This document shows, piece after piece, positions 5,716-36,827 of a stretch of DNA of 64,000 nt. Under the pieces are notes generated by a model, which searched no databases, was not told the DNA's origin, and worked only from the letters and a program-made list of their open reading frames with translations. The stretch lies in the NCBI GenBank assembly GCA_045648945.1, contig JAZROX010000045.1, forward strand, positions 26,362 to 90,361. The letters are read 5' to 3'. The position numbers and the translations under genes are program-made. Positions within the stretch are counted from its first letter, which is position 1; every line of letters begins with the position of its first letter. The DNA comes from Candidatus Enterousia sp. Its GTDB lineage: Bacteria > Pseudomonadota > Alphaproteobacteria > Rs-D84.

Positions 5716-6672
5716 TTAATTATCCTCGGTTTCCGGTGTGTCATCATCAATAAATTCCGCGTCCGCCGCATCTTCACGCAACAAAAATTCAAAGAACGCG
5801 CCCAACATATTCAACGGCCCCGTAATCGGCATTAACATAATTTTACCCAGTGTCTGCATCGGGTGCGGTTTCACATCCAAATGGTCCAGTGCGTTTTCAC
5901 GACCATAGAAATGTTTCTGATACGCGGCGTCCATATTCTTGCTCTGCATCATGACAAAGACATCGTATGTGTTAAACGGTTTATCAATAAACACGCCCGA
6001 CCCAAACGTTGCCCCCATACGCAGGTAACCTTTGATAAGAGGCGTCATTTGTTTTTTTGCAATTTCTTCGTCAACAAATGCGCGCGGCAAAATATTCATC
6101 TTGGACATGCGTGGATCCGCGCCGTCGGCAAAGTTTTCCGGTATCACGCGTGCGCGCAACCGCAACGGTGAAAGATGATTATAGTATAAATACGATATCG
6201 CCTGGGCCGATTCAACGGGTTTCTGGCCAACCCAAGACGCCACACCAAATAGAACCGCAATACGACGACGCAACACATATTCACTTAACCCCGCCCACAG
6301 CATACGCATAACCAACGCATTTTCGCGATATTCGGCGGCCACGCACGCACGCGACATTTCGGCAATATTGTCCGATGCCTTTTTAATCTTGGAAATATTG
6401 AACTCGGTTTCGGTATAGAACCCGCCCATTTTATCGGCGGCCTTTTTATCTATGATTCTGTACGTGCCAACAACCCGTCCATTATGAAACACGGCCATAT
6501 AGTCGGCATACCGGTCAAAATCATCAAATTCTTCGTGCAATTCATGTTGTTCGGCCGTTGCGGATGCGCCTTCTTCTACAACAAAAACGTCATAGCGCAA
6601 ATTGCGCACCATGCGGCGTTCTTCTTTATTCCGTGTAAGGCGAACTTCGAAATCACGAACCTTGATAGCCAT
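5716..6672 (-). CDS. olsB: Ornithine-acyl-ACP N-acyltransferase (OlsB-like, hemolysin-like acyltransferase)
   Basis: 318 aa GNAT-related fold. Conserved adjacency and translational coupling with a PlsC-family gene, as in the olsB-olsA operons of alphaproteobacteria. Confidence 0.55.
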   Translation of the reverse strand: MAIKVRDFEVRLTRNKEERRMVRNLRYDVFVVEEGASATAEQHELHEEFDDFDRYADYMAVFHNGRVVGTYRIIDKKAADKMGGFYTETEFNISKIKKASDNIAEMSRACVAAEYRENALVMRMLWAGLSEYVLRRRIAVLFGVASWVGQKPVESAQAISYLYYNHLSPLRLRARVIPENFADGADPRMSKMNILPRAFVDEEIAKKQMTPLIKGYLRMGATFGSGVFIDKPFNTYDVFVMMQSKNMDAAYQKHFYGRENALDHLDVKPHPMQTLGKIMLMPITGPLNMLGAFFEFLLREDAADAEFIDDDTPETEDN

Positions 6673-6765
6673 AAAACAATCCCTTGGTTATTTGGTAACT
6701 ATTGTATAAAGAATACCAAACATTGCAAGTCCGTGCAATCTTTTTATTTTTTTATTTACAAAAGC

Positions 6766-7182
6766 TTAATGTTGGTGTATTTGTGCCGCGTATTTCGCAA
6801 TTTCGTTCTTTAAACTGGGGTCCGCAGACATGTTTGCAAATTCTGACGGGTCTATCCATTTATAATCGGTGTGTTCATTTGATAATTTCACCTTGCCACT
6901 CAAATATTTTGCCAACAAAGTAATCCCAACGGTTTGTCTTTCTTTGGCCGGTGTCATAAAAGACCATAAAGACCAAGGCCTGAACTCGATTTCAACCTTT
7001 AGACCGGTTTCTTCAAAAACTTCGCGCTTTATTCCGTCAACGATTTTTTCGCCATATTCGATTTTTCCCCCAGGAATATCCCACAGTTCTGCGAAAACAT
7101 CTTCTTCGTTGCTGCGTTTTAAAACCAGAATTTTTCCGTCTTTTTGTATAATTGCTTTCAGTGCAACCTTAAATTCCGCCAT
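6766..7182 (-). CDS. NUDIX hydrolase
   Basis: Nudix box GGKIEYGEKIVDGIKREVFEETGL. The ATG at 7182 (MAEFKV...) gives a typical 138-aa protein. The track ORF uses an upstream TTG. Confidence 0.8.
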   Translation of the reverse strand: MAEFKVALKAIIQKDGKILVLKRSNEEDVFAELWDIPGGKIEYGEKIVDGIKREVFEETGLKVEIEFRPWSLWSFMTPAKERQTVGITLLAKYLSGKVKLSNEHTDYKWIDPSEFANMSADPSLKNEIAKYAAQIHQH

Positions 7183-7260
7183 TTTGCTCTCCTGTGTGTT
7201 GTCCACATTGATATTACCGCATAAATTCACAAAATCAAGATTTTTATAGACAGTCCACCC

Positions 7261-7286
7261 CGAACCAGTGACATACGGATTAACAG
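7261..7286. repeat. 26-bp direct repeat (left copy) bounding the defense island: cgaaccagtgacatacggattaacag
   Basis: Identical 26-mer recurs at 15962-15987. Putative attL. Confidence 0.7.
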
Positions 7287-7299
7287 TTATAACCAATTG

Positions 7300-7830
7300 T
7301 TTTTACTGTATTTTTTAAGTCCAGAGTGAGTGCGGGCTACAGCCGTTTTTTCGTGTAATTTTTGTATAAGTAAAAATAGCGGTATAACAAATGTATAATT
7401 TTGCGATTGTATTTTGTTGGAACATAATGCAAATATATCCAATGTTTTCCGTGGGTTTTGGCGAATTTTCCGTAATTTTGTTTTAAATTTTTCCGTTTGA
7501 TTTTTATGCGATTTTTTGCCTTGTATGAATTTTGGATAAAACCCGAAAAATTGGGATGCTGTGCGATACATTTTTATACACTTGTATAACAACATAAAAA
7601 TTTCATGGTTGTATAAAATTTCGCCAAATTCGTATAACAGCACGTATAGCAACTGTATAATCCAAAAATATATATGCCATGTATAAATTCATGCAAAATT
7701 ACAAATATAACGAATGTATAATTTTGATTTTCTTATTTGCAAACTTTTTGCAAATTCAGTCCGTGACTTACGTTTTGAAAATAGTTGATTATCTGATTGA
7801 TTTTTGTTCAATGATTATATACTATCCTCA
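7300..7830. repeat. AT-rich non-coding region with ~10 iteron-like TGTATAA(C/T) motifs
   Basis: gtataa copies at about 7357, 7383, 7392, 7585, 7611, 7632, 7655, 7681 and 7723. The track ORF 7287-7652 is probably spurious. Confidence 0.5.
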
Positions 7831-7832
7831 TT

Positions 7833-8225
7833 ATGAAACATGTGTTATTTGGTTTTAAGATGTTTATGAAAAATGTGCTATTATTCGTATGGCGCATGGT
7901 TTTTAATTTGGCTTATTATATAGCCTTGTTATTTGTACCGTGTTTTAGTAGCAGATTAAATTTTTGGCATATGGTTTGGTTTGTGATAACGACTGTGTAT
8001 TTGTATAACCATTTGGGGCAGGCAATGGTTTTTGTTCCGTTTAATGGCTATGCGTTAATTTTTATTGTATGGGTTTTTATGATAATGAAACCATTTATAA
8101 AAACAGTGGGCTGCCAATTGGGAACTCTGGAATTAAATAAAGCGGATAGTTCTAAACAGGAATTTGAAGAAAAACTTAAACAAGCCAAAAAGAATTTGGC
8201 TCTCAAGAAGGGTGAGGGTAAATAA
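7833..8225 (+). CDS. Hypothetical small membrane protein (island cargo)
   Basis: 130 aa with 3-4 predicted hydrophobic helices and a Lys-rich C-terminal tail. AT-rich codon usage matches the rest of the island. Confidence 0.45.
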   Translation: MKHVLFGFKMFMKNVLLFVWRMVFNLAYYIALLFVPCFSSRLNFWHMVWFVITTVYLYNHLGQAMVFVPFNGYALIFIVWVFMIMKPFIKTVGCQLGTLELNKADSSKQEFEEKLKQAKKNLALKKGEGK

Positions 8226-8617
8226 TGTTAAAACATGTTTTTGATTTTGGCGACAATAAAAATTTGGCAAGGAACAAACTGTTTGAAGTGGTTTCTAAAG
8301 GTGTTGATTTGTTAGCTAGTGATTATATTAACGAAGAATTGCTGAATTCTTGGAAAAAATATGCAAAAACCGTTCTTGAATTAGTGGATGAAGCGTACGG
8401 AACGCATTATTCGTCAGATTTTTATATATCTGATACGATGCTTGGAAGTAGTTATTTTAGTGCATATTCTTTGCATTTACATGATGTATATAACCACATC
8501 ACTCCGGGATTAAACCCGATACACATCCCATATGGACAATCTCCACAAGATTTTAAAGGAAAATTACAAAGATCTCTGAATGAATTATTAAATATTTTGT
8601 CAAAATTACAGAAATGA
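8225..8617 (+). CDS. Hypothetical protein (island cargo)
   Basis: 130-aa ORF whose start overlaps the stop of the previous ORF (coupling). No recognisable motif. Confidence 0.4.
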   Translation: MLKHVFDFGDNKNLARNKLFEVVSKGVDLLASDYINEELLNSWKKYAKTVLELVDEAYGTHYSSDFYISDTMLGSSYFSAYSLHLHDVYNHITPGLNPIHIPYGQSPQDFKGKLQRSLNELLNILSKLQK

Positions 8618-8632
8618 TATGAAAGTGACATT

Positions 8633-9535
8633 GTGCACTTTTCTTTTATAATTAAAAACGAGCATATATTGTTAAACAAAGAATTTCCTTTACAACACCC
8701 ATTAAAAAACGATGATATAGATACCTTGATGAAAAAGTTAAGGATGATGGTTCGTACCATGGAACAATTTCATCCCCAAGCGACAACAGATAAAGGATTG
8801 ATGGGAATCCATAGTTTAACCGCTGCAATCATATCACTAGCCGCAGAAGCGTATGATGCTTTGCAAAAAAATAGAGTATTTGTAGCATCTTCAATTGCTT
8901 GTCAGATAATAGAACTTTACATACAGTTGTTGTGGTTAGATAAACATTTTTCAACACACGGTGCAGACTATATTGATTTTGGATATGTTGAGCAAATAGA
9001 TATGCTGCGAGTGCATCCAGACCGAAAAGATGAAGTTTTGGCAAAAATAAAGCAAAATAACTGTAAACGTTTTTTGTTAAATAAACCTAAGAATGACAAT
9101 TTGTTGGATAAGCGAAATTACAGACCACATTGGTATCCTGGGACATTAAAGACAATTTCTAATGAGTGTTTTAAAGATATGTGGGACCAAATCAAAAATG
9201 TGCCACAGTTAACTGATTATTATGGTGACATGGATGTAAATTATGAGAACTATCAAATATTTTGTGGATTTAAACATTTTTCGCCGTACATAGTTCGTAA
9301 ATGCTTTGCGACGATGAGCTCCTTTGCAGAGGATGCACCTGAAGATACTAAGTGGATCGCTAGTGTCATTGTCGTTCAGAGTTTGTGTGTTATTTGTGAA
9401 ATAATGGAACAGCATGGAGATCATATTTTCAATTCAAAACCAGTTGCGACAGATGGACTGATGCTATCGTCTATACAAAACTTGATAAACGGTGACAATG
9501 TATTGTATTCTGTGAATTATCAAATAATTATCTGA
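8633..9535 (+). CDS. Hypothetical protein (island cargo)
   Basis: 300-aa ORF with no recognisable motif. The true start may be an internal Met (~8738). Confidence 0.4.
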   Translation: MHFSFIIKNEHILLNKEFPLQHPLKNDDIDTLMKKLRMMVRTMEQFHPQATTDKGLMGIHSLTAAIISLAAEAYDALQKNRVFVASSIACQIIELYIQLLWLDKHFSTHGADYIDFGYVEQIDMLRVHPDRKDEVLAKIKQNNCKRFLLNKPKNDNLLDKRNYRPHWYPGTLKTISNECFKDMWDQIKNVPQLTDYYGDMDVNYENYQIFCGFKHFSPYIVRKCFATMSSFAEDAPEDTKWIASVIVVQSLCVICEIMEQHGDHIFNSKPVATDGLMLSSIQNLINGDNVLYSVNYQIII

Positions 9536-9581
9536 GAATTTTTGTATGAAAAGTATTTAATGAATACTGAATTGTATATTT

Positions 9582-11009
9582 TTAGTTATTAAAAGTTAAA
9601 AGCAGTGAATTGGTAAATATGGTCAGAGTTTTACATGCACGAGTTGCAGCAACATAGAAGTTCTTTTTGTCAAGCAAATGAGCGTCCAATATAATTACAT
9701 TATCAAACTCTAGGCCTTTTGTAAGTAGGGTGCTGCCTATACATTGTTTATGTAAATTTCGTCCTGTTCTGCGTATATGATTTTTATAATCGTACATCGC
9801 ATTACAAATAGAACAGTTAGATACTATAGCATTTTGTAAAACTTTTATTATTGTGTTTAACAATTCGGGTCTTTGATACTTTAGCTTCAATACATCTCGC
9901 ATAAGCTTTATAATGTAAAATAATGATGTTTTACTGATTTTATCGTCGAGCAAGTTATCAACATGTTGTTTTAATTGGTTTGCCTTCTCTTTTTCTTCGA
10001 TTTTTGTTTTCTTTTTCAATCCGTTATTATTGAACCACGTATCAATATCTGTTTTATTGAACAAAAATTGTTCACACGTTTCTTTAAAAAGAGAGAATTG
10101 ACTAGTAGATGTGAGTAACGTGTCTAAGCGTATAGCTAAATTATAAAAATCTGGATCGTCTATGGCTTCTAGCAACTGAAAATGCGATAATGCTAAATTG
10201 TTTCTCAACGATTGTCTTTGCCGTAACATGGAATTTGCAATTATCAAAGTGTTCGGAATTCGTGATAAACGTAAAACTTGGCGTCTATAATTAAGATCGT
10301 TATAAACTGTGCCAGTGACGTGTATAATGTTTATGGCCGGCCAATTTTGCGATAAATCAACATCATTGCCTTGTTCCAAATATTTTCTTAGTGTTTTTAA
10401 AGATTGTCCTAAAATAGGGTTGTTGCCGTTGAGCTCCCATCTCCATGGCTGTTCCAGTGAGCCCGATGCATCAGAAAAATCGTTTAGTTCGCTATCAAAA
10501 TCGACCAAAGGTTCACCAAAATTGAAAATTCCTTGCATTGGGTCCCCCAATAAATGCATAGGTATCGCGTCCTTTAATTGCATAAGCATATTATGCTGAT
10601 TTGCAGTGCAATCTTGATATTCATCAATAAATATCCCTGAGTATGTTTTTTTTATTATATTACGTATCGGCTGCTTAGAAAACAATTCGGCCACCTTAGG
10701 TATGATGTTTTTATAGTATCCATTGGTGTTTTGTTCTGGTACAGATGCAGTAGCAAAGCCCAACACATATTTTTGGGCATATCCACATATCGTTTCTATA
10801 TTATATGCAGAACTGGGGATGCCACATTTTAACAATTTTTCCCTTATTGATGCGATTCCTGCATGAGTATGTGTTAAAATAAGTTGTTTGCCTAAGTTTC
10901 TGTCGTTAGCAAATTTTACGCAATCGGCGATAAAATGGGTTTTGCCATATCCAGCAGGCGCTATAATTTTTGTTTTTATTCCCATTACAAATTGTTCTAT
11001 ATTTACCAT
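9582..11009 (-). CDS. gajB: Gabija GajB, UvrD-like helicase
   Basis: Walker A APAGYGKTHF, UvrD motif II FIDEYQDC and motif VI VAATRA. 475 aa. Immediately downstream of, and coupled to, the OLD-family ATPase gene. Confidence 0.8.
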   Translation of the reverse strand: MVNIEQFVMGIKTKIIAPAGYGKTHFIADCVKFANDRNLGKQLILTHTHAGIASIREKLLKCGIPSSAYNIETICGYAQKYVLGFATASVPEQNTNGYYKNIIPKVAELFSKQPIRNIIKKTYSGIFIDEYQDCTANQHNMLMQLKDAIPMHLLGDPMQGIFNFGEPLVDFDSELNDFSDASGSLEQPWRWELNGNNPILGQSLKTLRKYLEQGNDVDLSQNWPAINIIHVTGTVYNDLNYRRQVLRLSRIPNTLIIANSMLRQRQSLRNNLALSHFQLLEAIDDPDFYNLAIRLDTLLTSTSQFSLFKETCEQFLFNKTDIDTWFNNNGLKKKTKIEEKEKANQLKQHVDNLLDDKISKTSLFYIIKLMRDVLKLKYQRPELLNTIIKVLQNAIVSNCSICNAMYDYKNHIRRTGRNLHKQCIGSTLLTKGLEFDNVIILDAHLLDKKNFYVAATRACKTLTIFTNSLLLTFNN

Positions 11010-12641
11010 TTACTCACCGATCCATTCAGATAAAGCAGTCCATGTTCTTTTTGTATAACAATCAGGTATTGTATCCCATTTGTCAAATATAGTTTTCCCT
11101 AAAGCTTCTCCCTTGTCGATTCTTTTATACCATTCGTTTCCTTTGTCAATGGCATAATTAGCAATTTTGATTCTATCTTCTGGGCAATCCTGCAACCCTG
11201 TTACAGACGGATGTGATAATAAGAGTTCTTCTATTATTGACCATGGTAAATCCTTAAAAATTTGATGCTCTATATCATTACCATTCTCGCAATCAAAAAT
11301 TTTGACGTCTAGGACTTGCAAGTCTGCTTTCTTATCATTTATATCATTTTTATCAGAATCAATAAAAACGCATGTATCAAAACCCAATTCTTTGAGTTTT
11401 TTTGCTCGTTCTATGGTGGTGCTTCCTTCGCCTAGAATATAGAAACAGTCATTTAAGGACATGGAATTTTTATTATTTTTTTGTCGCCATTTGTCCAATG
11501 CTCTACAAATACCTATCTCTGTTTTCCCTTCGCATATGATGATTTTTTTACAAAAAAAACCTTCCGGATTTGCCCTAACGACAGCTTGCCAATTGTCTTT
11601 TTCAGGAATGTTTGTAATAGAGACAAACTTGTTGTCATCGGACTTTTTTACAAGATACAAATCACTTGAAGCAAGTTCCACAATAGCATCACGTGAATGA
11701 GTAGTTAGAAAAATTTGCCCATTGTTTTCATCTTTTAATATTGATACAATTTGTTTAATTCTATCTGGTTCTAATCCTTGTTCTATTTCATCTATTAACA
11801 CTATCCCCCCTTGTTTGGTCAATGCTAATTGGATAGCTATAGAAAAAATGCGTTTTGAACCTTTACCTCTTAAACGTAAAGGTATATTGTTATAATCGTT
11901 TAAACAAATTTTAGTGTCCTTTATAGCAATATCCCTAAAATCGATGGATGTTTTTAAGCCTTCTGCGTTTAATCCGAGTTTGGTAGAAGTTTGGCTTATT
12001 TCATTGGTTGTTTCTAATGTTTGTGGAAAATCAATATTATCAATTTCAGATTTCACTGCTCTCAACCTATCGATAATTATGTTAGAATTTTCTGGTGCTC
12101 CAGAAATCTCTTTAAATAATTGATACAGTGGAGAACCTTTATTCCACGAAAAGTGATTGTCAACATAATCTGATATAAAAAAACAATTTAATTTTGCTCT
12201 ATCTGTTGCACTTATTGCTTTAGGTTCTTGGCGATTTGTAAAGATTTCCCATTTCGGTTCTAGGGTTTTATCTACGGTCAGCCTTATTGTATAAACATCT
12301 TCTAAATTATCATCGTCAGTTAAATCATCTATTACTTCTTTTGTGCTTCTATTATACTGTCTCTTATACAATCCAAACTTTTCTTCTGTTTGTAATACGT
12401 CTGGTATTTCAGAAAGAGTAACTTCGATTTGTATTTGTTGGTTTGTATCACCATCAAAAAAATCTGTGTCGTAAAACTGGAGAGTGTAATTAGGGCATAA
12501 AGCATAATAAATTGAATTTAAAACCGTTGTTTTCCCGCAATCATTCCTACCAATAAGACAAACAAAGTTTTTATCAAAGGTTTCAGATAATGATTTTATT
12601 GTACGAAAGTTTTTTATATCTAATTTTACTATCTTGCTCAA
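11010..12641 (-). CDS. gajA: Gabija GajA, OLD-family ABC ATPase fused to TOPRIM nuclease
   Basis: Walker A GRNDCGKTT, Walker B VLIDEIEQGLEP, and TOPRIM motifs IIICEGKTE and FIDSDKND in the C-terminal third. 543 aa. Confidence 0.8.
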   Translation of the reverse strand: MSKIVKLDIKNFRTIKSLSETFDKNFVCLIGRNDCGKTTVLNSIYYALCPNYTLQFYDTDFFDGDTNQQIQIEVTLSEIPDVLQTEEKFGLYKRQYNRSTKEVIDDLTDDDNLEDVYTIRLTVDKTLEPKWEIFTNRQEPKAISATDRAKLNCFFISDYVDNHFSWNKGSPLYQLFKEISGAPENSNIIIDRLRAVKSEIDNIDFPQTLETTNEISQTSTKLGLNAEGLKTSIDFRDIAIKDTKICLNDYNNIPLRLRGKGSKRIFSIAIQLALTKQGGIVLIDEIEQGLEPDRIKQIVSILKDENNGQIFLTTHSRDAIVELASSDLYLVKKSDDNKFVSITNIPEKDNWQAVVRANPEGFFCKKIIICEGKTEIGICRALDKWRQKNNKNSMSLNDCFYILGEGSTTIERAKKLKELGFDTCVFIDSDKNDINDKKADLQVLDVKIFDCENGNDIEHQIFKDLPWSIIEELLLSHPSVTGLQDCPEDRIKIANYAIDKGNEWYKRIDKGEALGKTIFDKWDTIPDCYTKRTWTALSEWIGE

Positions 12642-12709
12642 TTTTTATTTCTCCTAAAAGTTTTATATGCATGTGATTATGGCGAATGGTTCTTGTTGTA
12701 TTATAGTTT

Positions 12710-13606
12710 TTATTTCAATAATTCTTCCAACACACCTTTTTGCACCATGGCAATGTTCAAGATGTAATCTGTGGTGTTAAATGTGTCGTGCAATGGGCGT
12801 TGGGCAGTTTGCCAACCTAGACCATCAGTAATCCAAATGAATTGGTGACCGTCTTTAGACCATTGTTGATAAATTTTTGCATATTCGCCTGCTGTGGATT
12901 TTAGTTTTGAACCGCCACCACCGTAAAAGTTGGTTTCGATCAGATATAATTTATGTGGTGTGTTTATAGCAAAATCTATTCGTTTGGAAGAGTTTGTAAC
13001 GGTTATATGCTTACCCCATTCACTGTAAATTTTGTCTGCGGTAGCTTGGGCAATGTAGTCATATCCGTTTCTTTTACAAATATCTTTGATAAATAATTCT
13101 GTCAATGTTTCCATTGATGTGCCACTACGATTTTTGCGACCATTTGAATCAAGCCCGACTTCTACACCAAGGAAATAATCTGGAACGGATTTTATTGTTC
13201 GGTCAGAAATCAAATCTAATAAGCCAGATTCTTTCATGAATTTTGCAGCGTCTTTTGCGGACATTGGTTTTGTAAAATCAAAACTAGTTGTAGCGAAAGA
13301 GTTTGCGTGATCGATCAAAGAAATTTTTTTATGGCGTTCTGCGAGTAATGCAGGAATAATCTTAATTATATTTGGATATTCGCTTAAAAGTTGCTCTGCT
13401 GCCTTTTCAATATCTGGTTTGCCAATAAGGGTGTTAAGCAAATTCAATGATACTTCCGCTTCATGGTAATTTTTACATACCTTTTGCCAGTTCACAAAAT
13501 AATCCCAAGATTTGATAGTTTCTTTCAAATTATCAATCAAATACGCAAATACTTCGTCTTCGTTTTTACAACCTAGTAATTTATCAAATATTTGGGAATA
13601 TTTCAT
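12710..13606 (-). CDS. DpnII/MboI-family type II restriction endonuclease (predicted GATC-specific)
   Basis: 298-aa ORF terminal in a Dam-MTase / second-MTase / REase cassette, the same order as dpnM-dpnA-dpnB. Family assignment rests on context and size. Confidence 0.55.
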   Translation of the reverse strand: MKYSQIFDKLLGCKNEDEVFAYLIDNLKETIKSWDYFVNWQKVCKNYHEAEVSLNLLNTLIGKPDIEKAAEQLLSEYPNIIKIIPALLAERHKKISLIDHANSFATTSFDFTKPMSAKDAAKFMKESGLLDLISDRTIKSVPDYFLGVEVGLDSNGRKNRSGTSMETLTELFIKDICKRNGYDYIAQATADKIYSEWGKHITVTNSSKRIDFAINTPHKLYLIETNFYGGGGSKLKSTAGEYAKIYQQWSKDGHQFIWITDGLGWQTAQRPLHDTFNTTDYILNIAMVQKGVLEELLK

Positions 13607-14388
13607 TTTTTATCCTTTTTTTCAGATATATCATATAACCTTTTTTCAGCCAGTTCAACAAATTGTGACTCTTGGTCTATGCCAACAAACAAACGTCCAT
13701 GTTTTATTGCAGCAACACCTGTTGTGCCACTGCCCATAAAAGGATCCAGAATCAAATCGCCAGGATTTGTAGATGCCAAAATAATACGTTCCAATAATTC
13801 TACTGGTTTTTGAGTCGGGTGTTTGCCAAATTTCTTTTCTTCTTTAGTGGGTGTTCCAATAGCCCAAACACTTCGCATTTGGCAACCTGGCTTTTTAATA
13901 AAGTCTTTTGGGAAATCGCCATTCTTCATAGCTTCATAATTAAAAGTATGTTTTGCTTTTTTGTTTTTGCGCGCCCAAAGTAGGGTTTCGTGACTTGCGG
14001 TAAAGTACCGGCAAGACATATTCGGACTGGCATTTGGCTTAAACCAAGTTATGTCGTTTAAAATATGGAACCCAAGTAATTGCATAGCAAAGCCGCACGA
14101 ATATATGCTGTGGTATGTGCCGCTGACCCATAATGTGCCATTGGGTTTCAAAACACGATGACAGGCACAGAGCCATTTTTTATGAAATTCAAAATCATCA
14201 CTAAGACCGTGTGATTTATCCCAATCGCCTTTATTCACAGATACAACACAACCATTTTGACATGTGATACCACCGTTGGAAAGCATGTACGGTGGGTCTG
14301 CAAATATCATATCAAATGTATTTTCCGGAAGTTCAAGTAACTTTTCAAGGCAGTCTGCACAATAAAGACGATACGATTTCTTAGTCAT
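13603..14388 (-). CDS. DNA N6-adenine/N4-cytosine methyltransferase (DpnA-like second methylase)
   Basis: FADPPY catalytic motif near the N-terminus and a SAM-binding DPFMGSGTT motif near the C-terminus (beta-class order). Confidence 0.75.
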   Translation of the reverse strand: MTKKSYRLYCADCLEKLLELPENTFDMIFADPPYMLSNGGITCQNGCVVSVNKGDWDKSHGLSDDFEFHKKWLCACHRVLKPNGTLWVSGTYHSIYSCGFAMQLLGFHILNDITWFKPNASPNMSCRYFTASHETLLWARKNKKAKHTFNYEAMKNGDFPKDFIKKPGCQMRSVWAIGTPTKEEKKFGKHPTQKPVELLERIILASTNPGDLILDPFMGSGTTGVAAIKHGRLFVGIDQESQFVELAEKRLYDISEKKDKK

Positions 14389-15313
14389 AGTTAGTTATAA
14401 GTAATTCACGAATTGCATCACGACCATCTGCCTTGGAATTTATAAGACGTTTAGCCAAAATACGGTTAATTTTATAATCTTTGTACAAATCATCGAAGAA
14501 TGGATCATCAATGTAATTGGTTGGATCTGAATTGCTCAACATCTGCAAAGCCCCCATTTGATGACATTTATCAAAAACCTGTTTCAAACGTTCCTGTTCT
14601 GCATCGTCAAAATCGCCAACGGCATAAGAATTGAAAGATGATGTTTCACGAATTGGACGATATGGAGGATCATAATAAATGAACGTATCGGCTTTTACAT
14701 AATCTGGTGTAGCCCCAAAGTCTGCCTGCATAATAGTAGCAATTTGCAAAGCTTCAGACACGTTGCGTAAGTTTTCTTCATCCAAAATACGTGGATTTGT
14801 ATATTTGCCCATTGGAACATTGAATTTGTTTTTGCTGTTTACACGGAACAACCCATTAAAGCATGTCCGGTTCAAGAATATCGTTAGGGCAGCGCGGCGA
14901 ACAAAACTTGTGCGGTATACATTGGCATCAACATTTTTATCACAGTCGTTATATTCATCGCGTCTGGCATAATAATATGCCTTTGTGTCATCTGTATGTC
15001 TGTATTCGGTTTGAATTTTAGTTAATTCAACAATCAAACTTTCCACATCGCGTTTTATGACGTTGTAAAGAATCACCAATTCTGGGTTGATATCGAATAA
15101 AAACGCTTCCCGGATTTGATATCTATTATATATGTCAAAGAATACGGCACCGCCACCGACAAAGGGTTCTATATACCGTTTGATGCCCCCCATCTTTAGT
15201 TTCAAAGGAAGTTTTTGTTCAATTTGTTCCAACAATTGCCCTTTACCGCCGGCCCACTTCAAAACAGGGCGACATTCGGTATAATCTGGCAATCTGGCTG
15301 GTATCGCTATCAA
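14381..15313 (-). CDS. Dam-type DNA adenine methyltransferase (DpnM-like, GATC)
   Basis: N-terminal LKWAGGKGQLL motif typical of Dam/DpnM (D12 class), plus DPPY. Confidence 0.8.
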   Translation of the reverse strand: MIAIPARLPDYTECRPVLKWAGGKGQLLEQIEQKLPLKLKMGGIKRYIEPFVGGGAVFFDIYNRYQIREAFLFDINPELVILYNVIKRDVESLIVELTKIQTEYRHTDDTKAYYYARRDEYNDCDKNVDANVYRTSFVRRAALTIFLNRTCFNGLFRVNSKNKFNVPMGKYTNPRILDEENLRNVSEALQIATIMQADFGATPDYVKADTFIYYDPPYRPIRETSSFNSYAVGDFDDAEQERLKQVFDKCHQMGALQMLSNSDPTNYIDDPFFDDLYKDYKINRILAKRLINSKADGRDAIRELLITNYD

Positions 15314-15361
15314 AAATTATCCTTTCCTTATTGCTATATTAGAAGAAAATAGCAGATAAAA

Positions 15362-15625
15362 TCAAGGTGTTTTATAACGTTTTTGTGGTTTGTTTTTCCA
15401 CATGGCTGCCATTTGGAATAATTTGTGCTGGATACGGCGGAGCAACCATGCTTGCCGGCAGGTTAGGTTGCCGTTGTTTGTTCTGCGTATGGCGTTCTCT
15501 AATTCGTGCAGTGATCGGCATGCTGCGAAATAAAGCATAATAAAATCGGTTTTGTTACTGGGTTCAATTTCCCGAAAATGTTTGTACTTCATAGACAATC
15601 CTTTTAAGGTTGTCGCATTCATCAA
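15362..15625 (-). CDS. Small basic hypothetical protein; possible regulator or recombination directionality factor of the island
   Basis: 87 aa, Arg/Lys-rich. A perfect palindrome at 15706-15738 lies upstream of its start. Confidence 0.3.
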   Translation of the reverse strand: MMNATTLKGLSMKYKHFREIEPSNKTDFIMLYFAACRSLHELENAIRRTNNGNLTCRQAWLLRRIQHKLFQMAAMWKNKPQKRYKTP

Positions 15626-15705
15626 TATCTTTCGGAGAAAGTCCAGTCATTTGTTCGTTTCCTCGCAAATAAACATTTTTCGCGCTGATATAACAAATGT
15701 ATAAC

Positions 15706-15738
15706 GGTGACATACTTCCGGACGTTCCGTATGTCACC
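15706..15738. promoter_or_regulatory. Perfect inverted repeat GGTGACATAC-N13-GTATGTCACC (operator or recombinase-binding candidate)
   Basis: 10-bp arms. The GTGACATAC half-site also occurs inside the 26-bp island-boundary repeat. Flanked by ATAACAAATGTATAA repeats (15690-15704, 15811-15825, and 7384-7398 at the other island end). Confidence 0.5.
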
Positions 15739-15942
15739 CATTTTTGGAAGTTATGAAAGCCTTGTAAATCTTGGTATAGCGGGTTTGCCAGTAATTGAAA
15801 AAAATCCCGTATAACAAATGTATAATTTTTTGATTATATTTGGCTGTATTCTGGTATTTTTAGGTCGTATTTTTTCTGAAAATGTAAAGTGGTTTTTGGG
15901 ATAAAAAACGCCACAAACACGCGGGTTTGTGGCACTAGATCG

Positions 15943-15987
15943 TGGCTCGGGCAACTGGACTCGAACCAGTGACATACGGATTAACAG
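15943..15987 (-). pseudogene. 3' tRNA fragment (T-arm, acceptor 3' strand, CCA; anticodon loop CTGTTAA resembling tRNA-Asn GUU) forming the right island boundary
   Basis: Reverse complement reads CTGTTAATCCGTATGTCACTGGTTCGAGTCCAGTTGCCCGAGCCA: perfect T stem-loop ACTGG-TTCGAGT-CCAGT, 7-nt acceptor strand, discriminator, CCA. No complementary 5' half is present. Contains the second copy of the 26-bp direct repeat (15962-15987). Confidence 0.55.
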
Positions 15988-16239
15988 GGGGGGATAGAGG
16001 TGGGCTTGTAGGACGGCGTGTGAGGTGCAGAAAAACGTCGTTTTTTTGCGCGCGGATATGTTACAACTGTGAGGTGTTTTTGGATTTGTGGCCCAGTGTA
16101 GCAAAAAAATTGCACTATCGTGTAGCCACATGTGCCTAAATGATGCAAAAGGAAGGATATGCCGGCCGTATTCGCGGAATATTTTTTCGCTTGTGGAAAA
16201 GTATCATAACTTGTACTATCCAATTGAAAGGAGTCAAAA

Positions 16240-17265
16240 ATGAAATGGGCGATTATATTCGCAATCATCGTACTTGGAATCGCTGGATACTTTATGTTTT
16301 CCGGTAATAAATGGGATAAAACATTTGATCAAAATCCAAATGTTATAACCCAGAAAGTGCATTTTACAAATCGATATGGTGTTGATTTGGTTGGCGATTT
16401 ATATATGCCAAAAAACATAGATAAAAATCAAAAATATGCCGCTATCGCTGTATCCGGTCCATTTGGTGCGGTCAAAGAACAAGTCTCGGGTCGATATGCC
16501 CAAGAAATGGCAAATCGTGGTTTTGTGACTTTGGCCTTTGACCCGTCTTTTACCGGCGAAAGCGGTGGCAAGATTCGGGATGTCGCGTCGCCCGATATAA
16601 ATACCGAAGATTTTTCTGCGGCGGTGGATTACCTGGTGACTTTGCCATTTATCGATGAAAATAAAATTGGCATTATCGGTATTTGTGGTTTTGGTGGTTT
16701 TGCATTAAATGCGAATGCGATGGATACACGTATTCGTGCAACCGTCACATCAACAATGTATGATATGACACGTGTTTCGGCGCATGATTATAATGATACA
16801 AAAAGTGCCGAGCAATTATATGCCGAACGTGTTCAAATGAATAACCAAAGAACCGCGGACGCAAAAAGTGGCAAAATCGCAAAATCCGCCCCATTACCAG
16901 CCCCAGAAACTTTGACCGATGATACGCCGCAATTTGTGCGCGATTATGTTGCATTTTATAAAACGCCACTTGGCTATCATAAACGTTCGGTTGGTTCACA
17001 ACGTGGTTGGAATGCAACATCTGGGTTGTCTTTGATAACTATGCCGATATTGGCCTATGCAGACACAATCAAAAACCCGGTGTTAATGATACACGGCGAA
17101 AACGCGCACAGCCGTTATTTCAGCGAAGATGCGTTCAAAAAATTGACCGGCGATAACAAAGAATTATTGATTATTCCGGGGGCAAATCATACAGACCTGT
17201 ATTATAAAATGGATGTGATACCGTTTGATAAAATGGAACAATTCTTCAAAACAAATTTGAAATAA
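16240..17265 (+). CDS. Alpha/beta-hydrolase fold protein (dienelactone-hydrolase-like, Cys nucleophile GICGFGG)
   Basis: N-terminal TM/signal. GxCxG nucleophile-elbow-like motif. 341 aa. Confidence 0.5.
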   Translation: MKWAIIFAIIVLGIAGYFMFSGNKWDKTFDQNPNVITQKVHFTNRYGVDLVGDLYMPKNIDKNQKYAAIAVSGPFGAVKEQVSGRYAQEMANRGFVTLAFDPSFTGESGGKIRDVASPDINTEDFSAAVDYLVTLPFIDENKIGIIGICGFGGFALNANAMDTRIRATVTSTMYDMTRVSAHDYNDTKSAEQLYAERVQMNNQRTADAKSGKIAKSAPLPAPETLTDDTPQFVRDYVAFYKTPLGYHKRSVGSQRGWNATSGLSLITMPILAYADTIKNPVLMIHGENAHSRYFSEDAFKKLTGDNKELLIIPGANHTDLYYKMDVIPFDKMEQFFKTNLK

Positions 17266-17277
17266 AAAGGATAACAC

Positions 17278-17835
17278 ATGAAAAAATTACTATCTGTTTT
17301 AATGATGGTTTGCGCGGTATTCACAAATGCGAAAGCAGAGGAGGCGAATATGACGAACGATAAAATCTTGGTTGCTTATTTCAGTGCCACCGGAAACACA
17401 AAATCTGTAGCTGAAAAGTTGGCAGCCGCGATAAATGCCGATTTGTTCGAAATTATGCCTGAACAACCGTATACAAGCGATGACTTGAATTGGCAAAACG
17501 ACCAAAGTCGTTCTTCTATTGAAATGGGTGACAGAAGTTCAAGACCAGCAATCGCATCAAAAATCAAAGATATATCACAATATAAAATTGTATTTGTTGG
17601 ATCACCAATTTGGTGGGGACGTGAACCGTCAATTATGGATACGTTTATTGAAAGTTATGAATTTTCGGACAAAACGGTTATCCCGTTTGTTACATCCGGC
17701 AGCAGTGGTATCGGCGATTATGGGGCAAACCTGCAATCGTTAGCCCCAGGAGCAAAAGTCCTGACCGGCAAACGTTTTACAACCGATGTTACCGCGGAAG
17801 AATTAAAAGCCTGGGCTACTGCGCAAATGCAATGA
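17278..17835 (+). CDS. Flavodoxin-like protein with N-terminal signal peptide
   Basis: VAYFSATGNTKSVAEKLA flavodoxin FMN-binding signature. IVFVGSPIWWG motif. Confidence 0.7.
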   Translation: MKKLLSVLMMVCAVFTNAKAEEANMTNDKILVAYFSATGNTKSVAEKLAAAINADLFEIMPEQPYTSDDLNWQNDQSRSSIEMGDRSSRPAIASKIKDISQYKIVFVGSPIWWGREPSIMDTFIESYEFSDKTVIPFVTSGSSGIGDYGANLQSLAPGAKVLTGKRFTTDVTAEELKAWATAQMQ

Positions 17836-33201: not shown

Positions 33202-33295
33202 GGATGGTTGGCAGAGCGGTTGAATGCATCCGACTTGAAATCGGACAAGGTATGAAATAAGACCTTCGGGGGTTCAAATCCCTCACCATCCGCCA
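33202..33295 (+). tRNA. tRNA-Ser (anticodon UGA) with long variable arm
   Basis: Acceptor GGATGGT/ACCATCC, anticodon stem CCGA/TCGG with loop CTTGAAA, long extra arm, T-loop GGTTCAAATCC, discriminator G and encoded CCA. Confidence 0.85.
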
Positions 33296-33455
33296 GTAAA
33301 ATCGGGCATCCCGTGGTAATTCCACGGGATGTTCTTTTTCGCCCCGTTTCCGGCAGTTTTTATACACGACATTACCAGTATATATCATTGTTTTTACCAA
33401 CTATGCCATATTTTACCATATTTATATACCTTACCCAAAAACGCGATGCCACTTT
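33290..33455. repeat. Direct repeat copy 1: tRNA-Ser 3' end (last 6 nt), its terminator hairpin and ~130 bp downstream
   Basis: ccgccagtaaaatcgggcatcccgtggtaattccacgggatgttcttttt...attaccagtatatatcat recurs at 38922-39090 with ~90% identity over the first 100 bp, degenerating beyond. The terminator hairpin is at 33308-33339. Confidence 0.75.
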
Positions 33456-33570
33456 TGAGTGCTTTTTCTATTAAAACCAAACAAAAAAACAGTTTCTTGT
33501 TATGAAATTAGTTGACAAAAGTTTTTGATGTGTTATTTTATCGGTGATATAAATTCAAGGCGTTTATATT

Positions 33571-34692
33571 ATGTTGATTGATTATAAAAATTATGTTAGC
33601 TCTTTAATTCGTTTTTTTGCACAAAAAAAATGGGAATATTCCTTTTTAAATGGAGATGTTATTTTTATAAAAAACTATACTGATACTGTCACTAGAAAAA
33701 TTAAACCTGAATATTTATTGAACGACTCGCTGTTTTATTCAAAAGTTGTTGAAAGCTTTTCTGCTCTGAATATACCCGTCAAAATAATAAATTCAATAGA
33801 AAATAAAAATTCTGATACAGATTTTATAATTGCTGGATTACAATTAGCTAATAACTCTTTAAAGAAAGATATCGTGAATCACGAATCTTTTTACTCATTG
33901 CAACCAGTTGTGCGTTTAACAAAAACCTCCATGGGAGGACAAAACAATAATATGCTAACATCGTTTATAAACTTATGTTCGGTTGATATAAACACTTCCT
34001 TAGATGAATATATGCAACGTGTGGATCAATGGATTTCTGTTTTTTCGAACCTTTCTTTACATACAAGTGGCTTTAAATTGATAACCAAAAAAATCCAAAA
34101 TAATAGGTTTTATGATGGGGTACCTTTTTATAATGGATTAAAGTTAAAATTCGTGTATCAAAACGTTGATATAGCCGTTGCTAATTTGTTTACCGTTAAT
34201 TGTAAACAAGGTTCAATTCTGGTTTCTGATTTCGGTTCTAGCTATGAACGTGTGTTAGGATGTATCAATGGGAATGATAACTTTTTTAAACCCATATATC
34301 CTAGTTTTCAGGTTTTATATGGCAACTATGTTATAAACGATAGGTTGCGAACGGCAGTTCTGATGTGTATGTCAGGTATAACTCCTAGTGCACATGGCAA
34401 TGGACAAAAATTAAGGAATATAATAAAAGAGGCTACAACAGTACCAGAAATTAGTAGACTAAAAGAAGTCATAACTTATTATTATATGTATTATTCAAAG
34501 TTTATAAATTCTAAAATAGAGTTGCCGTATGTATCCAGTATGATAGAAAAAGAGATTGAACAACAGCAGAAAAAGATTATTTCTGGTAAATATGATAAAA
34601 AAAATGTTACTAAATCAATAGATAATGTTTGTAGCGAAATCATTTTGAAGCAAGTCTTGCAAAGACAATCTATGTTAACCAAATTTAAATAA
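33571..34692 (+). CDS. Hypothetical protein (AT-rich island gene 1)
   Basis: 373-aa ORF with island-type low-GC codon usage. No confident motif. Confidence 0.45.
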   Translation: MLIDYKNYVSSLIRFFAQKKWEYSFLNGDVIFIKNYTDTVTRKIKPEYLLNDSLFYSKVVESFSALNIPVKIINSIENKNSDTDFIIAGLQLANNSLKKDIVNHESFYSLQPVVRLTKTSMGGQNNNMLTSFINLCSVDINTSLDEYMQRVDQWISVFSNLSLHTSGFKLITKKIQNNRFYDGVPFYNGLKLKFVYQNVDIAVANLFTVNCKQGSILVSDFGSSYERVLGCINGNDNFFKPIYPSFQVLYGNYVINDRLRTAVLMCMSGITPSAHGNGQKLRNIIKEATTVPEISRLKEVITYYYMYYSKFINSKIELPYVSSMIEKEIEQQQKKIISGKYDKKNVTKSIDNVCSEIILKQVLQRQSMLTKFK

Positions 34693-34706
34693 TAAAAAGT
34701 TACATT

Positions 34707-36827
34707 ATGAATGTATTTGAGACCCCACAATTTTTTCGAGAAGAAATATTAAAACTTTCAAACTTAGTTAATCGTGAAGAAGATAAATATACTGGCAAGT
34801 CCTTAATCTGTGTTTTTTTTACATCCTATTGCGGTGTTGGTTGTCCTTTTTGCTTTTTTTCCAGCCCTTCTCCAATACATGGAGAAAATGTAGAAAATAA
34901 GTTTAATGCTGATGGAGTTGATAAATTTATAGAATTCGCTAACAGTGCGAATGTAGGATATCTGCAAATATCTGGTGGTGGTGAACCATTTTTAGAAAAA
35001 GAGGCTATTATAAAAAGTATAGAACATATCAATGCGGATAGAATAATTTTAGTAACCAGCGGCATATGGGCCTGTAATATTGAGAATGCTGAAAAATACC
35101 TATTAGATTTGAAAAATGCTTTAAGTCGTAGAACCAACAAAACAAGACTATCTATTAGATTAAGTGTCAGCAAAGATCATAATATTAAATTGAAAAATCG
35201 TCCTCTTTATAACTTATTACAATTATTTGAAAAAAAATATAAATATGACGAGGATTTCACATTACAGCTAAAGACCTTTGATAACGATGATACTTTGACA
35301 ACTTATCTGGACAAATTTAATCCTGGGTGCAAAATAGAATACATTGGTAAAAATTGTTCTGATGATGAAAATCATATCAAAGTTATGCCACAAAAATTCA
35401 GAGTAATTTTTGATTCTGGTTATTCAGTAATAATCGGTCAATCTAGAATTTTTAATTCCAATCTTAGACCAAATATGAATATTCCAAATTCTATTGCAAA
35501 TACAATTAATGTATACGATCAGGATACCTCACAAAGCCAGTCTGATTTTCCATCTCTAGTTTTTAATTCAAACGGAAAACCAGGAATAGATTGGATTATT
35601 GAGTACAATGGAAATGTTTGTGCATGGCAAAACCGTGTTCAAGACAATTTATTAAACATATATGAAGACAAGTATGATTATGTTGTGAATAAAACATTGT
35701 CAGATCCTTTGACTTTGTCTTTTATAGAAAAGGGCGCAAAATATAGAGAAAAAATCATACAAGAAGTTGCCCCGCACACCGTAAAATTGGTAAAGGCTGT
35801 TAGTATACGTGATTATGCTGGAACATTATTGTTTGAAGATGAAAAGACCAGACTATATTACACATTACGCGTTTTGCAAGATTACATGAAAGAAGGGAGA
35901 ATAAATCAAGAAATATTTAGGCAACTGCCTTCAGAGATTCGATCGATACTGCAATTAACACAACAAGATTTAGTCGCATTGTATAAAAAATCTAATTATT
36001 CAATATTATCACAAGAACTAAGCAAGAATCATAACGCACAAACTTTTGGGGATTTTTTAGAGTTGGTCAAACTAGGACACTATAAACTCAATGCGTATGA
36101 TATACAAAAAGCTATCAAATATTACAATTCCATAAGTGGTTGCCAGATAAGTAGTATAGACGAGATACCTCATTTGACGGGAATTGATGTCGAGAGACGC
36201 TTTACAAAAAGAGTAATGACAATGAAAAAATTAGGACAAAATACAACAGGTTTGAAACATATATACATATACCGTCACGGAGAAACTTTTTGGAATACAG
36301 AAGGTATTGTTAAAGGTCAAATGGATGATCTAAACGTAAGTTTTACTGATAAAGGGTTAGAACAAATAAATACAATTGCGCAAGATATGAAGTTTAATCA
36401 AATTGAAGAAATATATGCATCTGATTTGGCAAGAACTAAAAATACCGCTCTGTTAGCTAATACAGATTTACAGCTTCCATTATCTTTTCATTCTGAATTA
36501 CGCGCATTGAATATGGGAAAATATCAAGGAAAACCATTCAAAGATTTTATTAGTGATCCTGCTGTACAAACAGCTTTCATAAACCACGATATTTGCATTC
36601 CTGATGGTGAGAGCATTAATCAGTTAAATACTAGACTTTTTACATTTTTAAACAAAATTGTATCGCAAACCACAGCTAAAAATATCGCAATAATTATGCA
36701 TAGTGCAGCTATAAGCAACTTAAAAGCCTATATTACAAAAGAAAAATATGAAGATATAGAACGATGTGAAATTTTATATGCAAATAAAAAATTTACAGTA
36801 ATAAAAACTAGACAAAAGACGTATTAA
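34707..36827 (+). CDS. Radical SAM domain protein fused to a C-terminal histidine-phosphatase (PGM-branch) domain
   Basis: N-terminal CGVGCPFC (CX3CX2C) and GGGEPFL SAM-binding motif. C-terminal IYRHGETFWN (RHG catalytic motif) and IIMHSAA second His. 706 aa. Confidence 0.7.
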   Translation: MNVFETPQFFREEILKLSNLVNREEDKYTGKSLICVFFTSYCGVGCPFCFFSSPSPIHGENVENKFNADGVDKFIEFANSANVGYLQISGGGEPFLEKEAIIKSIEHINADRIILVTSGIWACNIENAEKYLLDLKNALSRRTNKTRLSIRLSVSKDHNIKLKNRPLYNLLQLFEKKYKYDEDFTLQLKTFDNDDTLTTYLDKFNPGCKIEYIGKNCSDDENHIKVMPQKFRVIFDSGYSVIIGQSRIFNSNLRPNMNIPNSIANTINVYDQDTSQSQSDFPSLVFNSNGKPGIDWIIEYNGNVCAWQNRVQDNLLNIYEDKYDYVVNKTLSDPLTLSFIEKGAKYREKIIQEVAPHTVKLVKAVSIRDYAGTLLFEDEKTRLYYTLRVLQDYMKEGRINQEIFRQLPSEIRSILQLTQQDLVALYKKSNYSILSQELSKNHNAQTFGDFLELVKLGHYKLNAYDIQKAIKYYNSISGCQISSIDEIPHLTGIDVERRFTKRVMTMKKLGQNTTGLKHIYIYRHGETFWNTEGIVKGQMDDLNVSFTDKGLEQINTIAQDMKFNQIEEIYASDLARTKNTALLANTDLQLPLSFHSELRALNMGKYQGKPFKDFISDPAVQTAFINHDICIPDGESINQLNTRLFTFLNKIVSQTTAKNIAIIMHSAAISNLKAYITKEKYEDIERCEILYANKKFTVIKTRQKTY

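Follow-up and report, generated by a model that had tools for sequence, protein, structure and literature searches.

Gabija is an established two-gene system, and to our knowledge the stand-alone MutT-like NUDIX hydrolase PDC-S07, a PADLOC candidate, figures in the literature as a prediction only. Integrative-element defence hotspots (P2/P4, tRNA-linked islands) hold variable cargo between anchors, carry tRNA 3'-half repeats and grow by tandem accretion. In RexAB-type and other abortive-infection (Abi) systems, a small multi-TM protein is combined with a soluble partner. DUF5677 has been found enriched in defence contigs beside serine recombinases (bioRxiv 10.1101/2025.10.07.681051). In the one experimental test known to us, nine candidates were challenged with six phages in E. 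faecalis; five gave protection, and the DUF5677 ORF, from Bacillota, was not one of them. The three genes analysed here, ORF1 to ORF3, lie beside Gabija in a stretch of 64,000 nucleotides from Candidatus Enterousia sp., referred to below as the window. The features of the locus are the following.

6766-7182, minus strand: NUDIX gene of the window, divergent and outside the att repeat, 30% identical to the NUDIX fused to ORF3 relatives
7261-7286, minus strand: left 26-nt direct repeat, a tRNA-Asn(GTT) fragment from anticodon loop to T arm, left boundary of the island
7287-7832, plus strand: leader, gene-free, G+C 0.284, carrying some 11 motifs of the GTATAA type and members of a 48-nt repeat family
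7833-8225, plus strand: ORF1, basic membrane protein of 130 aa, first gene of the ORF1-ORF2 pair
8225-8617, plus strand: ORF2, soluble protein of 130 aa, its start overlapping the ORF1 stop
8625-8652, plus strand: sigma-70-like hexamer pair GTGACA-16-TATAAT (11/12, the best of the region), a consensus match only
8633-9535, plus strand: ORF3, 300 aa if started at GTG but more likely 288 aa with TTG 8669 as start, a DUF5677 protein, predicted all-alpha and cytoplasmic
9582-11009, minus strand: gajB (PADLOC GajB, 2.3e-117), convergent on ORF3, neighbouring cargo and not part of the trio
11010-12641, minus strand: gajA (PADLOC GajA, 2.9e-152), likewise neighbouring cargo and not part of the trio
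12710-15313, minus strand: DpnII-type restriction enzyme (DpnII, 1.2e-96) and two methyltransferases, further island cargo
15962-15987, minus strand: right 26-nt repeat, within a tRNA-Asn 3' half (15943-15987), right boundary of the island

The block of low G+C content at 7261-15987 is 8.7 kb long and is bounded by the exact 26-nt tRNA-Asn fragment, present in two exact copies in the window against none expected by chance. The same 26-mer sits inside intact tRNA-Asn genes of loci L010 and L028, and its other copies are each preceded by a tRNA acceptor half. At the right end, the tRNA-Asn 3' half (15943-15987) has a terminator-like hairpin just downstream on the minus strand, and its 5' half is missing. 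Beyond the repeats lie ordinary genes of higher G+C content: the left flank has GNAT and NUDIX genes, the right flank those of an alpha/beta hydrolase and a flavodoxin. The block is best explained as an integrase-less island of a family that builds up tandem arrays at tRNA-Asn in uncultured Alphaproteobacteria of gut and rumen. It resembles the integrative-element hotspots in its variable cargo between anchors, its tRNA 3'-half repeats and its tandem accretion; unlike them, it has no integrase between the repeats, its tRNA lacks the 5' half (the window has no intact tRNA-Asn), and ORF3, the anchor, is itself cargo-like. Locus L010 has an integrase beyond the tRNA, and its syntenic methyltransferases belong to N6_N4_Mtase and MethyltransfD12. 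The leader is 96-100% identical in L010-L017. Copies of its 48-nt repeat family stand at 7372-7419 and 7695-7742, with a third at 15799-15846, and these motifs and repeats are candidate recombinase arm sites, a candidate promoter region, or both. No Rfam family matched 6500-17500, and the AT-rich leader therefore does not correspond to a known RNA.

A preliminary description of the sequence had reported three co-directional genes that converge on Gabija, and their positions and lengths proved exact, all three lying on the plus strand and facing GajB. The translational coupling described for ORF1 and ORF2 agrees with a stop and a start that share one base (TAATG), and the AT-rich composition with a G+C content of 0.31-0.34, versus 0.41 for the whole window. 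Kyte-Doolittle profiles likewise bear out a hydrophobic, multi-TM ORF1 and a soluble ORF2, ORF3 also being soluble. The "compact operon" is right as to strand and tight spacing, but a single three-gene transcript is possible only, given the start and promoter of ORF3 discussed below. All three genes are under purifying selection: in unsaturated comparisons (dS 0.7-1.5), dN/dS is 0.08-0.15 for ORF1 and 0.10-0.13 for both ORF2 and ORF3. With values of 0.08-0.15 overall, the ORFs are real genes and not chance frames of AT-rich DNA.

The absence of detectable motifs claimed for the trio holds for ORF1 and ORF2, which match no family, but not for ORF3, which matches Pfam DUF5677 (PF18928) with an E-value of 1.9e-6 and 28.5 bits. 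This score exceeds the gathering cut-off of 27.1 bits, and the alignment of residues 59-218 to profile positions 4-152 of 166 covers most of the profile. Twenty of 30 relatives also match DUF5677, the best at 7.7e-12. By its profile match, ORF3 is a new member of this known, uncharacterised family and, because its score lies just above the cut-off, a divergent one. Compared with DUF5677 at large, the ORF3 subfamily is small (1.84 billion proteins yielded only 37 clusters at 50% identity) and divergent, occurs mainly in Ca. Enterousia-like Alphaproteobacteria and is often NUDIX-fused. The remote-homology searches suggested earlier thus led from ORF3 to DUF5677, returned noise for ORF1 and ORF2 (Pfam, PADLOC, PHROGs and NCBIfam) and reached no known defence model: the PADLOC-DB 2.0 HMMs gave no family at E<=1 for any of the three proteins, and neither did PHROG or NCBIfam models match one. 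Viral contig scans found no relatives of ORF2 or ORF3, and ORF3 had no tblastn match in the phage and plasmid collections searched.

The AlphaFold model of ORF3 is all-alpha and confident (pLDDT 88.8). Structural analogues were found neither in the PDB nor in BFVD, leaving no biochemical clue from structure, and a PDB sequence search matched neither ORF3 nor the alignment profile A2. The conserved residues are E94, D115, F116, F147, Y163, W167, Y207 and a C211-x2-K214-H215 motif, and no DNA-binding or recombinase domain is recognisable. ORF3 was also considered as a HEPN protein. Its sole R-x4-6-H motif, R161-N-Y-R-P-H166, lacks conservation, most homologues having K or N in place of H166, and for this reason the reading was rejected; there was neither a Pfam match nor a significant Foldseek match to HEPN. 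Translation of ORF3 likely begins at TTG 8669, giving 288 aa, since this codon is the start in the 100%-identical database protein P0001 and homologues begin there too. Such a start leaves a gap of 51 nt behind ORF2, which holds the sigma-70-like match, and makes a three-gene operon a possibility only. This hexamer pair is a possible separate promoter of ORF3, located between ORF2 and the TTG start; the total count of sigma-70-like matches in the region is not above that of shuffled sequence.

Many ORF3 relatives carry a NUDIX domain. It is fused N-terminally in P0004, P0005, P0008, P0020-P0022, P0024, P0028 and P0029, and where fused or encoded just upstream it matches PDC-S07 (PADLOC, 2e-34); apart from this domain, the ORF3 relatives have no PADLOC match. 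In the window, ORF3 itself contains no NUDIX (PDC-S07) domain, and its N-terminal extension aligns with the linker of the NUDIX fusions. The NUDIX gene at 6766-7182 is unlikely to be a split partner: the att repeat separates it from ORF3, it is encoded on the opposite strand, and it is only 30% identical to the fused domain. A "121-aa ORF" upstream of ORF3 in L030, L031 and L033, considered as a split NUDIX, is low-complexity and spurious, with no NUDIX detected. In L008, the ORF1-ORF2 pair is followed directly by the cognate NUDIX gene of NUDIX-DUF5677 fusions (91% identity), where the contig ends; this gene carries two in-frame stops.

ORF1 has hydrophobicity peaks at about residues 15-40 and 61-95, two to three predicted TM helices, a pI of 9.8 and a charged C-terminal tail. 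Only two clusters of homologues were found in 5.8 billion proteins. Every locus with either gene (L007-L017, L036 and L044) has ORF1 and ORF2 adjacent and in the same order, and stop and start overlap throughout, by 1 nt in most cases and by 8 nt in L008, whose pair is only 44-48% identical to that of the window. Three loci (L007, L009 and L044) carry the pair without ORF3. ORF1-ORF2 is thus a two-gene module, very rare, that always moves as a pair. In gross architecture, and in lying in a defence island, it would be akin to RexAB-type and other systems of a small multi-TM protein with a soluble partner, but neither protein is similar to Pfam, PADLOC or PHROG models, those of Rex and Abi included, nor to holin-like proteins. 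By hhalign, ORF2 is related neither to DUF5677 nor to the alternative 121-aa upstream partner in L018 and L026.

Homologues of ORF3 occur at 20 species-level loci, all in Ca. Enterousia-like Alphaproteobacteria of gut and rumen; as L021 duplicates L022, 19 of these loci are distinct. The ORF1-ORF2 pair is absent from 18 of the 19 and, besides the window, is present only in L036. Given these absences and the pairs without ORF3, the proposal of one three-gene system is not supported. The trio does co-occur outside this genome, in close relatives of the window island (L010-L014, L016 and L036; L015 and L017 break off within ORF3) and possibly in L008, but not across diverged loci. The window type and L008 represent two diverged lineages, and the pair adjoins a gene of the ORF3 family in both, which argues for some linkage between the modules.

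Among ORF3 homologues more than 90% identical, and also within clades of 90-97% identity, the neighbours differ on both sides. Upstream there are the fused or adjacent PDC-S07-type NUDIX, PDC-S41, PDC-S20 or a serine recombinase, and downstream two Gabija types, type IIG RM, Mrr or unknown giant proteins. This bears out the defence-island setting described earlier, above all for ORF3, whose homologues lie among RM, Gabija, TA, RT, AIPR, Mrr and PADLOC candidates in every locus examined. A homologue of 48% identity adjoins RT, AIPR and AAA+protease genes, a relative of 30% identity is a moron behind a prophage tape-measure gene, and in L035 a relative lies downstream of a serine recombinase, the arrangement noted above for DUF5677. 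All the homologues belong to a single narrow bacterial lineage, and largely to a single island family, so their constant presence in defence islands could reflect shared ancestry of the island rather than function.

Comparison with L010 places a recombination breakpoint inside ORF3. The near-identical block that the window shares with L010-L017 extends from the att repeat across the pair and takes in some 40 codons at the start of ORF3. Between the window and L010, near-identity breaks at about 8750-8800: the pair is 98-100% identical, the rest of ORF3 only about 70%, the two Gabija systems are of non-homologous types, and identity returns to 96% in DpnII. ORF3 may thus be the constant element of a recombination hotspot, and we propose that its conserved sequence serves as a homology anchor by which the defence cassettes on either side are exchanged.

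Several explanations were weighed for the trio. Spurious reading frames would suit the AT-rich region and the near lack of homologues of ORF1 and ORF2, but are barely conceivable: the dN/dS values at dS 0.7-1.5 already refute them, the L008 pair is conserved over its full length at 44-48% identity, and ORF3 has a Pfam family match and a confident fold. A single three-gene Abi system, in which ORF3 would sense infection and ORF1 and ORF2 would be the effector in the role of NUDIX, would agree with the shared strand and tight spacing, the near-identical block shared with L010-L017 from the att repeat into ORF3, the diverged L008 pair placed again directly before the cognate NUDIX gene, and the N-terminal extension that aligns with the fusion linker. 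We nevertheless judge it unlikely, as the pair is missing from 18 of 19 distinct ORF3 loci and occurs without ORF3 in three others, different genes lie upstream of ORF3 homologues that share more than 94% identity with the L036 protein, the L008 NUDIX gene has two in-frame stops, and ORF3 has a plausible promoter of its own. A related reading, in which DUF5677 would be a sensing or ligand-binding core with swappable partners (fused or adjacent NUDIX in most relatives, here ORF1-ORF2) and the trio its membrane-effector variant, on a fold that has no solved analogue, is quite improbable.

ORF3 might instead be a backbone or maintenance gene of the tRNA-Asn islands, acting in regulation, recombination anchoring or competitor exclusion rather than immunity. 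It is constant between variable flanks, often comes first among the genes, 370-570 bp in from the att repeat, holds the recombination breakpoint and has convergent neighbours at gaps of 0-4 bp. This too is of low probability, since some repeat-bounded islands have no ORF3 (e.g. L005 4979-7603), many relatives carry a NUDIX hydrolase fusion, ORF3 lies far from any repeat in L019, L034 and L045, no DNA-binding or recombinase domain is recognised, and distant relatives stand elsewhere, for example in a prophage tail module or downstream of a serine recombinase. A role for ORF3 as accessory to, or regulator of, the neighbouring Gabija system is very unlikely. ORF3 converges on GajB and nearly abuts it in the window, L018 and L021-L023/L036, loci that cover two non-homologous Gabija types; yet proteins 94-96% identical to the ORF3 of L036 adjoin unrelated genes of 960, 1212 and 695 aa, clade A homologues adjoin S24 peptidase, type IIG RM and similar genes, and Gabija is by general knowledge complete with two genes.

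The reading we prefer, with moderate confidence, is that the trio consists of two separate cargo modules of the defence island, placed at its left end, with functions suggested by context. One would be ORF1-ORF2, a small protein of two to three TM helices coupled to a soluble 130-aa protein, which may act on the membrane in its own right, for example as a toxin-modulator pair or in exclusion. The other would be ORF3, a self-contained DUF5677 protein, probably with its own start and promoter, which may be a stand-alone anti-phage protein of the Abi type. Its conserved E/D/Y/W/C-x2-K-H pocket may bind or process a nucleotide-derived ligand, and such a ligand would explain the MutT-like NUDIX fused N-terminally in close relatives. 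From their context, both modules are plausible anti-phage candidates.

All of these are context-based candidates, from organisms that cannot be grown. The tRNA-Asn island arrays offer a clear example of defence cassettes swapped by homologous recombination around an anchor gene. If ORF3-type DUF5677 proteins, alone or fused to NUDIX, protect against phage, a widespread uncharacterised Pfam family would gain a role, a new fold would join the immune repertoire, and the PADLOC candidate PDC-S07 would be linked to a partner domain.

The three co-directional ORFs at the left end of the defence island (7261-15987) fall into two separable cargo modules, the ORF1-ORF2 pair and ORF3, carried by an integrase-less island bounded by tRNA-Asn fragments.

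Features of the island (coordinates, strand, feature)
7261-7286: left copy of the 26-nt direct repeat
7287-7832: gene-free leader of 546 bp, left repeat to ORF1; GC 0.284, about 11 GTATAA-type motifs
7833-8225, +: ORF1, 130 aa, ATG start
8225-8617, +: ORF2, 130 aa, ATG start
8633-9535, +: ORF3, 300 aa from GTG
9582-11009, -: GajB (PADLOC, 2.3e-117)
11010-12641, -: GajA (PADLOC, 2.9e-152)
12710-13606, opposite strand to ORF1-3: DpnII-type endonuclease (Pfam, 1.2e-96), after GajBA and with two methyltransferases
15362-15625, -: 87-aa ORF, last gene before the right repeat, no Pfam match
15943-15987, -: tRNA-Asn 3' half, 45 nt, holding the right repeat copy (15962-15987), then a terminator-like hairpin

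The ORF list and the sequence agree exactly with the preliminary description, which placed three co-directional ORFs at 7833-9535, convergent on Gabija. Its account of a membrane protein coupled to a soluble one is also borne out: ORF1 is basic (pI 9.8), with a strongly hydrophobic N-terminal two thirds (Kyte-Doolittle windows above 1.6 begin at residues 15-22 and 61-76) and a charged C-terminal tail, ORF2 and ORF3 have the sequence properties of soluble proteins, and the ORF1 stop and ORF2 start have one base in common (TAATG). The AT-rich composition was likewise correctly described: the ORFs have a GC of 0.31-0.34 and the entire block 0.344, compared with 0.406 across the window. All three are real genes; measured against homologues, ORF1 has a Nei-Gojobori dN/dS of 0.08-0.15, and ORF2 and ORF3 have 0.10-0.13 each (dS 0.7-1.6 across the three), which refutes spurious ORFs. 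The true start of ORF3 is probably TTG 8669, giving 288 aa, because a database homologue (P0001, 100% identical) has that length and other homologues start at the corresponding position (MLNKE.../MSEKE...); ORF2 and ORF3 would then be 51 nt apart. Of all sigma-70-like matches in the region, the best (8625-8652, 11/12) falls in this gap, and since the match total is not above that of shuffled sequence, a promoter here is only a hint. ORF2 and ORF3 share a reading frame, with TGA and a few codons between them (8615-8669).

The direct repeat, CGAACCAGTGACATACGGATTAACAG, is exact, and none is expected by chance. Reverse-complemented, it matches the segment of tRNA-Asn(GTT) that runs from anticodon loop to T arm; the 5' half of the tRNA is absent at the right repeat, and ARAGORN found no tRNA-Asn in the window. 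In many of the related loci fetched for comparison (L001-L045) the 26-mer is 100% conserved, often in two copies. L010 and L028 each have a copy within an intact tRNA-Asn gene, and each remaining copy is preceded by the acceptor-stem half, a pattern that points to islands integrating successively at tRNA-Asn. Between the two repeats of the window are only ORF1-3, Gabija, the DpnII restriction-modification (RM) system and the 87-aa ORF, and no integrase; outside lie ordinary higher-GC genes (GNAT and NUDIX on the left, alpha/beta hydrolase and flavodoxin on the right). The leader matches no Rfam family. A 48-nt repeat family has copies in the leader and near the right island end (15688-15846), and these repeats and the leader motifs could plausibly be arm-type recombinase sites. 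The NUDIX gene directly outside the left repeat (6766-7182, -) is MutT-like and matches the PADLOC candidate defence family PDC-S07 (6e-20); its extension in the ORF list to 7296, across the tRNA fragment, is probably spurious. A second low-GC block (about 33300-41000, GC 0.30-0.34), directly after tRNA-Ser(TGA) at 33202-33295 and encoding ORFs of 373, 706, 238, 294 and 338 aa, may be another integrated island.

The lack of detectable motifs reported for the three proteins does not extend to ORF3, which matches Pfam DUF5677 (PF18928) with 28.5 bits, just over the curated cut-off of 27.1 (E 1.9e-6). The same model matches 20 of 30 family members. ORF3 belongs, if marginally by score, to this known but uncharacterised family, in a divergent subfamily with frequent NUDIX fusion. 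Word-indexed searching identified 45 homologues (48-100% identity). The family is small: when 1.84 billion cluster representatives were searched exhaustively with the profile, only 37 proteins came out. In the GTDB species set homologues occur at 20 loci, nearly all in Candidatus Enterousia or unnamed gut/rumen alphaproteobacterial MAGs. The AlphaFold model, made with a deeper alignment, is confident (pLDDT 88.8, pTM 0.85, about 12 helices); Foldseek found no analogue in PDB or BFVD (best E 0.3), and the profile matched no PDB sequence. In the wide family, conservation covers E94, D115/F116, F147, Y163, W167, Y207, C211 and K214-H215. An R-x4-H string looks HEPN-like and is unconserved, and HEPN membership was rejected. 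About ten homologues are of about 400 aa, with an N-terminal MutT-like NUDIX domain that matches PDC-S07, a single-gene candidate (2e-34), and their linker lines up with the N-terminal extension of the window's ORF3. ORF3 itself is not a PDC-S07 protein, nor a member of any PADLOC system, and in the literature found PDC-S07 is a prediction only. The NUDIX protein outside the left repeat is only 30% identical to the fused domains.

For ORF1 and ORF2, 5.8 billion proteins yielded only 2-3 homologous clusters each; the two always co-occur, stop and start overlapping. Their architecture is like that of RexAB-type modules of a small polytopic protein and a soluble partner; the likeness is one of architecture only, and sequence gives no support for membership of any family.

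As to whether the three genes form one system, tblastn across all fetched loci and analysis of ORF3 clades showed that the claimed unit does not hold. Recurrence of the trio was found in L010-L017/L036, which are variants of the window's own island; all other species-level ORF3 loci are without the pair, and the pair also occurs without ORF3 (L009, and L007 and L044, where HNH and Mrr follow on the other strand). In the island variants the pair is 98-100% identical to that of the window and ORF3 only 71-88%, the Gabija is longer and non-homologous, and DpnII returns to 96% identity. The profile of nucleotide identity breaks inside ORF3, at about 8750-8800, showing cassette exchange by recombination within the gene. 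Neighbours on both sides differ even within ORF3 clades of 90-97% identity.

Elements upstream of ORF3 homologues (locus, element)
L020-22, L028, L029, L032: fused NUDIX
L023, L034: separate NUDIX, then an inserted PDC-S41 ATPase gene (L023:7629-10807, L034:7626-10828; 2.6e-250) ahead of ORF3
L024: PDC-S20 KAP-type NTPase (5.5e-48)
L018, L026: unrelated 121-aa protein
L035:6912-9421: large serine recombinase, its gene overlapping the start of the ORF3 homologue

On the downstream side the neighbour is mostly convergent, 0-4 bp away, and is a long or short Gabija, type IIG RM, S24 peptidase, Mrr, or one of the uncharacterised proteins (1207, 960 or 695 aa). With neighbours variable on both sides, ORF3 is the constant element of a recombination hotspot, and the pair, missing from most ORF3 loci and found without it, is a separate, much rarer cassette. 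The PDC-S41 gene lies exactly between the cognate NUDIX and DUF5677 genes, as if it had entered where the two domains of the fusion meet. The ORF3 homologue of L035 is the most divergent (50% identity). The abutting, convergent proteins of 1207-1212 aa (L030:2960-6583, L033:10832-14455, L024:4262-7900), 960 aa (L026:2904-5786, L031:10829-13711) and 695 aa (L025:7601-9688) have no Pfam or PADLOC match, adjoin type IIG-like enzymes and are possible uncharacterised defence genes.

The defence-island setting was confirmed at every locus examined, with RM, toxin-antitoxin, Mrr, reverse transcriptase and AIPR genes around: HigBA, Mrr, methyltransferases and reverse transcriptase at L001-3, AccI and Eco57I RM and PIN at L004, AIPR, EcoRI methylase and ICEA at L005, and reverse transcriptase, AIPR and an AAA+S8 protease beside a 48%-identical ORF3 homologue at L045. 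When 131 neighbouring ORFs were scanned with PADLOC, 363 models matched, RM and MADS components foremost. DUF5677 is statistically enriched beside serine recombinases in Bacillota defence contigs (2025 preprint, bioRxiv 10.1101/2025.10.07.681051), a recombinase-linked pattern that the overlap at L035 fits; in that study five of nine candidates were reported to protect E. faecalis against six phages, the tested DUF5677 ORF not among them. A 30%-identical DUF5677 relative (L038:5814-6581, also L039 and L040) immediately follows the tape-measure gene in a prophage tail module, and this prophage also encodes a Lit-type Peptidase_U49.

We regard the reading of the island as modular cargo as highly probable. 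ORF3 would be a self-contained anti-phage protein, an immune role to which we give somewhat less than an even chance, and its conserved polar pocket may handle a nucleotide-derived ligand, which would account for the recurrent NUDIX partner. ORF1-ORF2 would be an independent membrane-acting pair. Taken together, modular cargo with an immune ORF3 is slightly favoured. A true three-gene system is kept alive by the block structure of the identity profile and by L008, where the pair shows only 44-48% identity and the next gene is the NUDIX cognate to the fusions (91% identity, with two in-frame stops, at the contig end); given how often pair and ORF3 occur apart, we consider it unlikely. That ORF3, constant among changing neighbours, is a backbone or anchor gene of the island with no immune role is also improbable, and that it is an accessory of Gabija, one of several downstream neighbours, is very doubtful. 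ORF3 and the pair, as modular cargo, are good candidates, with functional roles at candidate level only, in an instructive hotspot.
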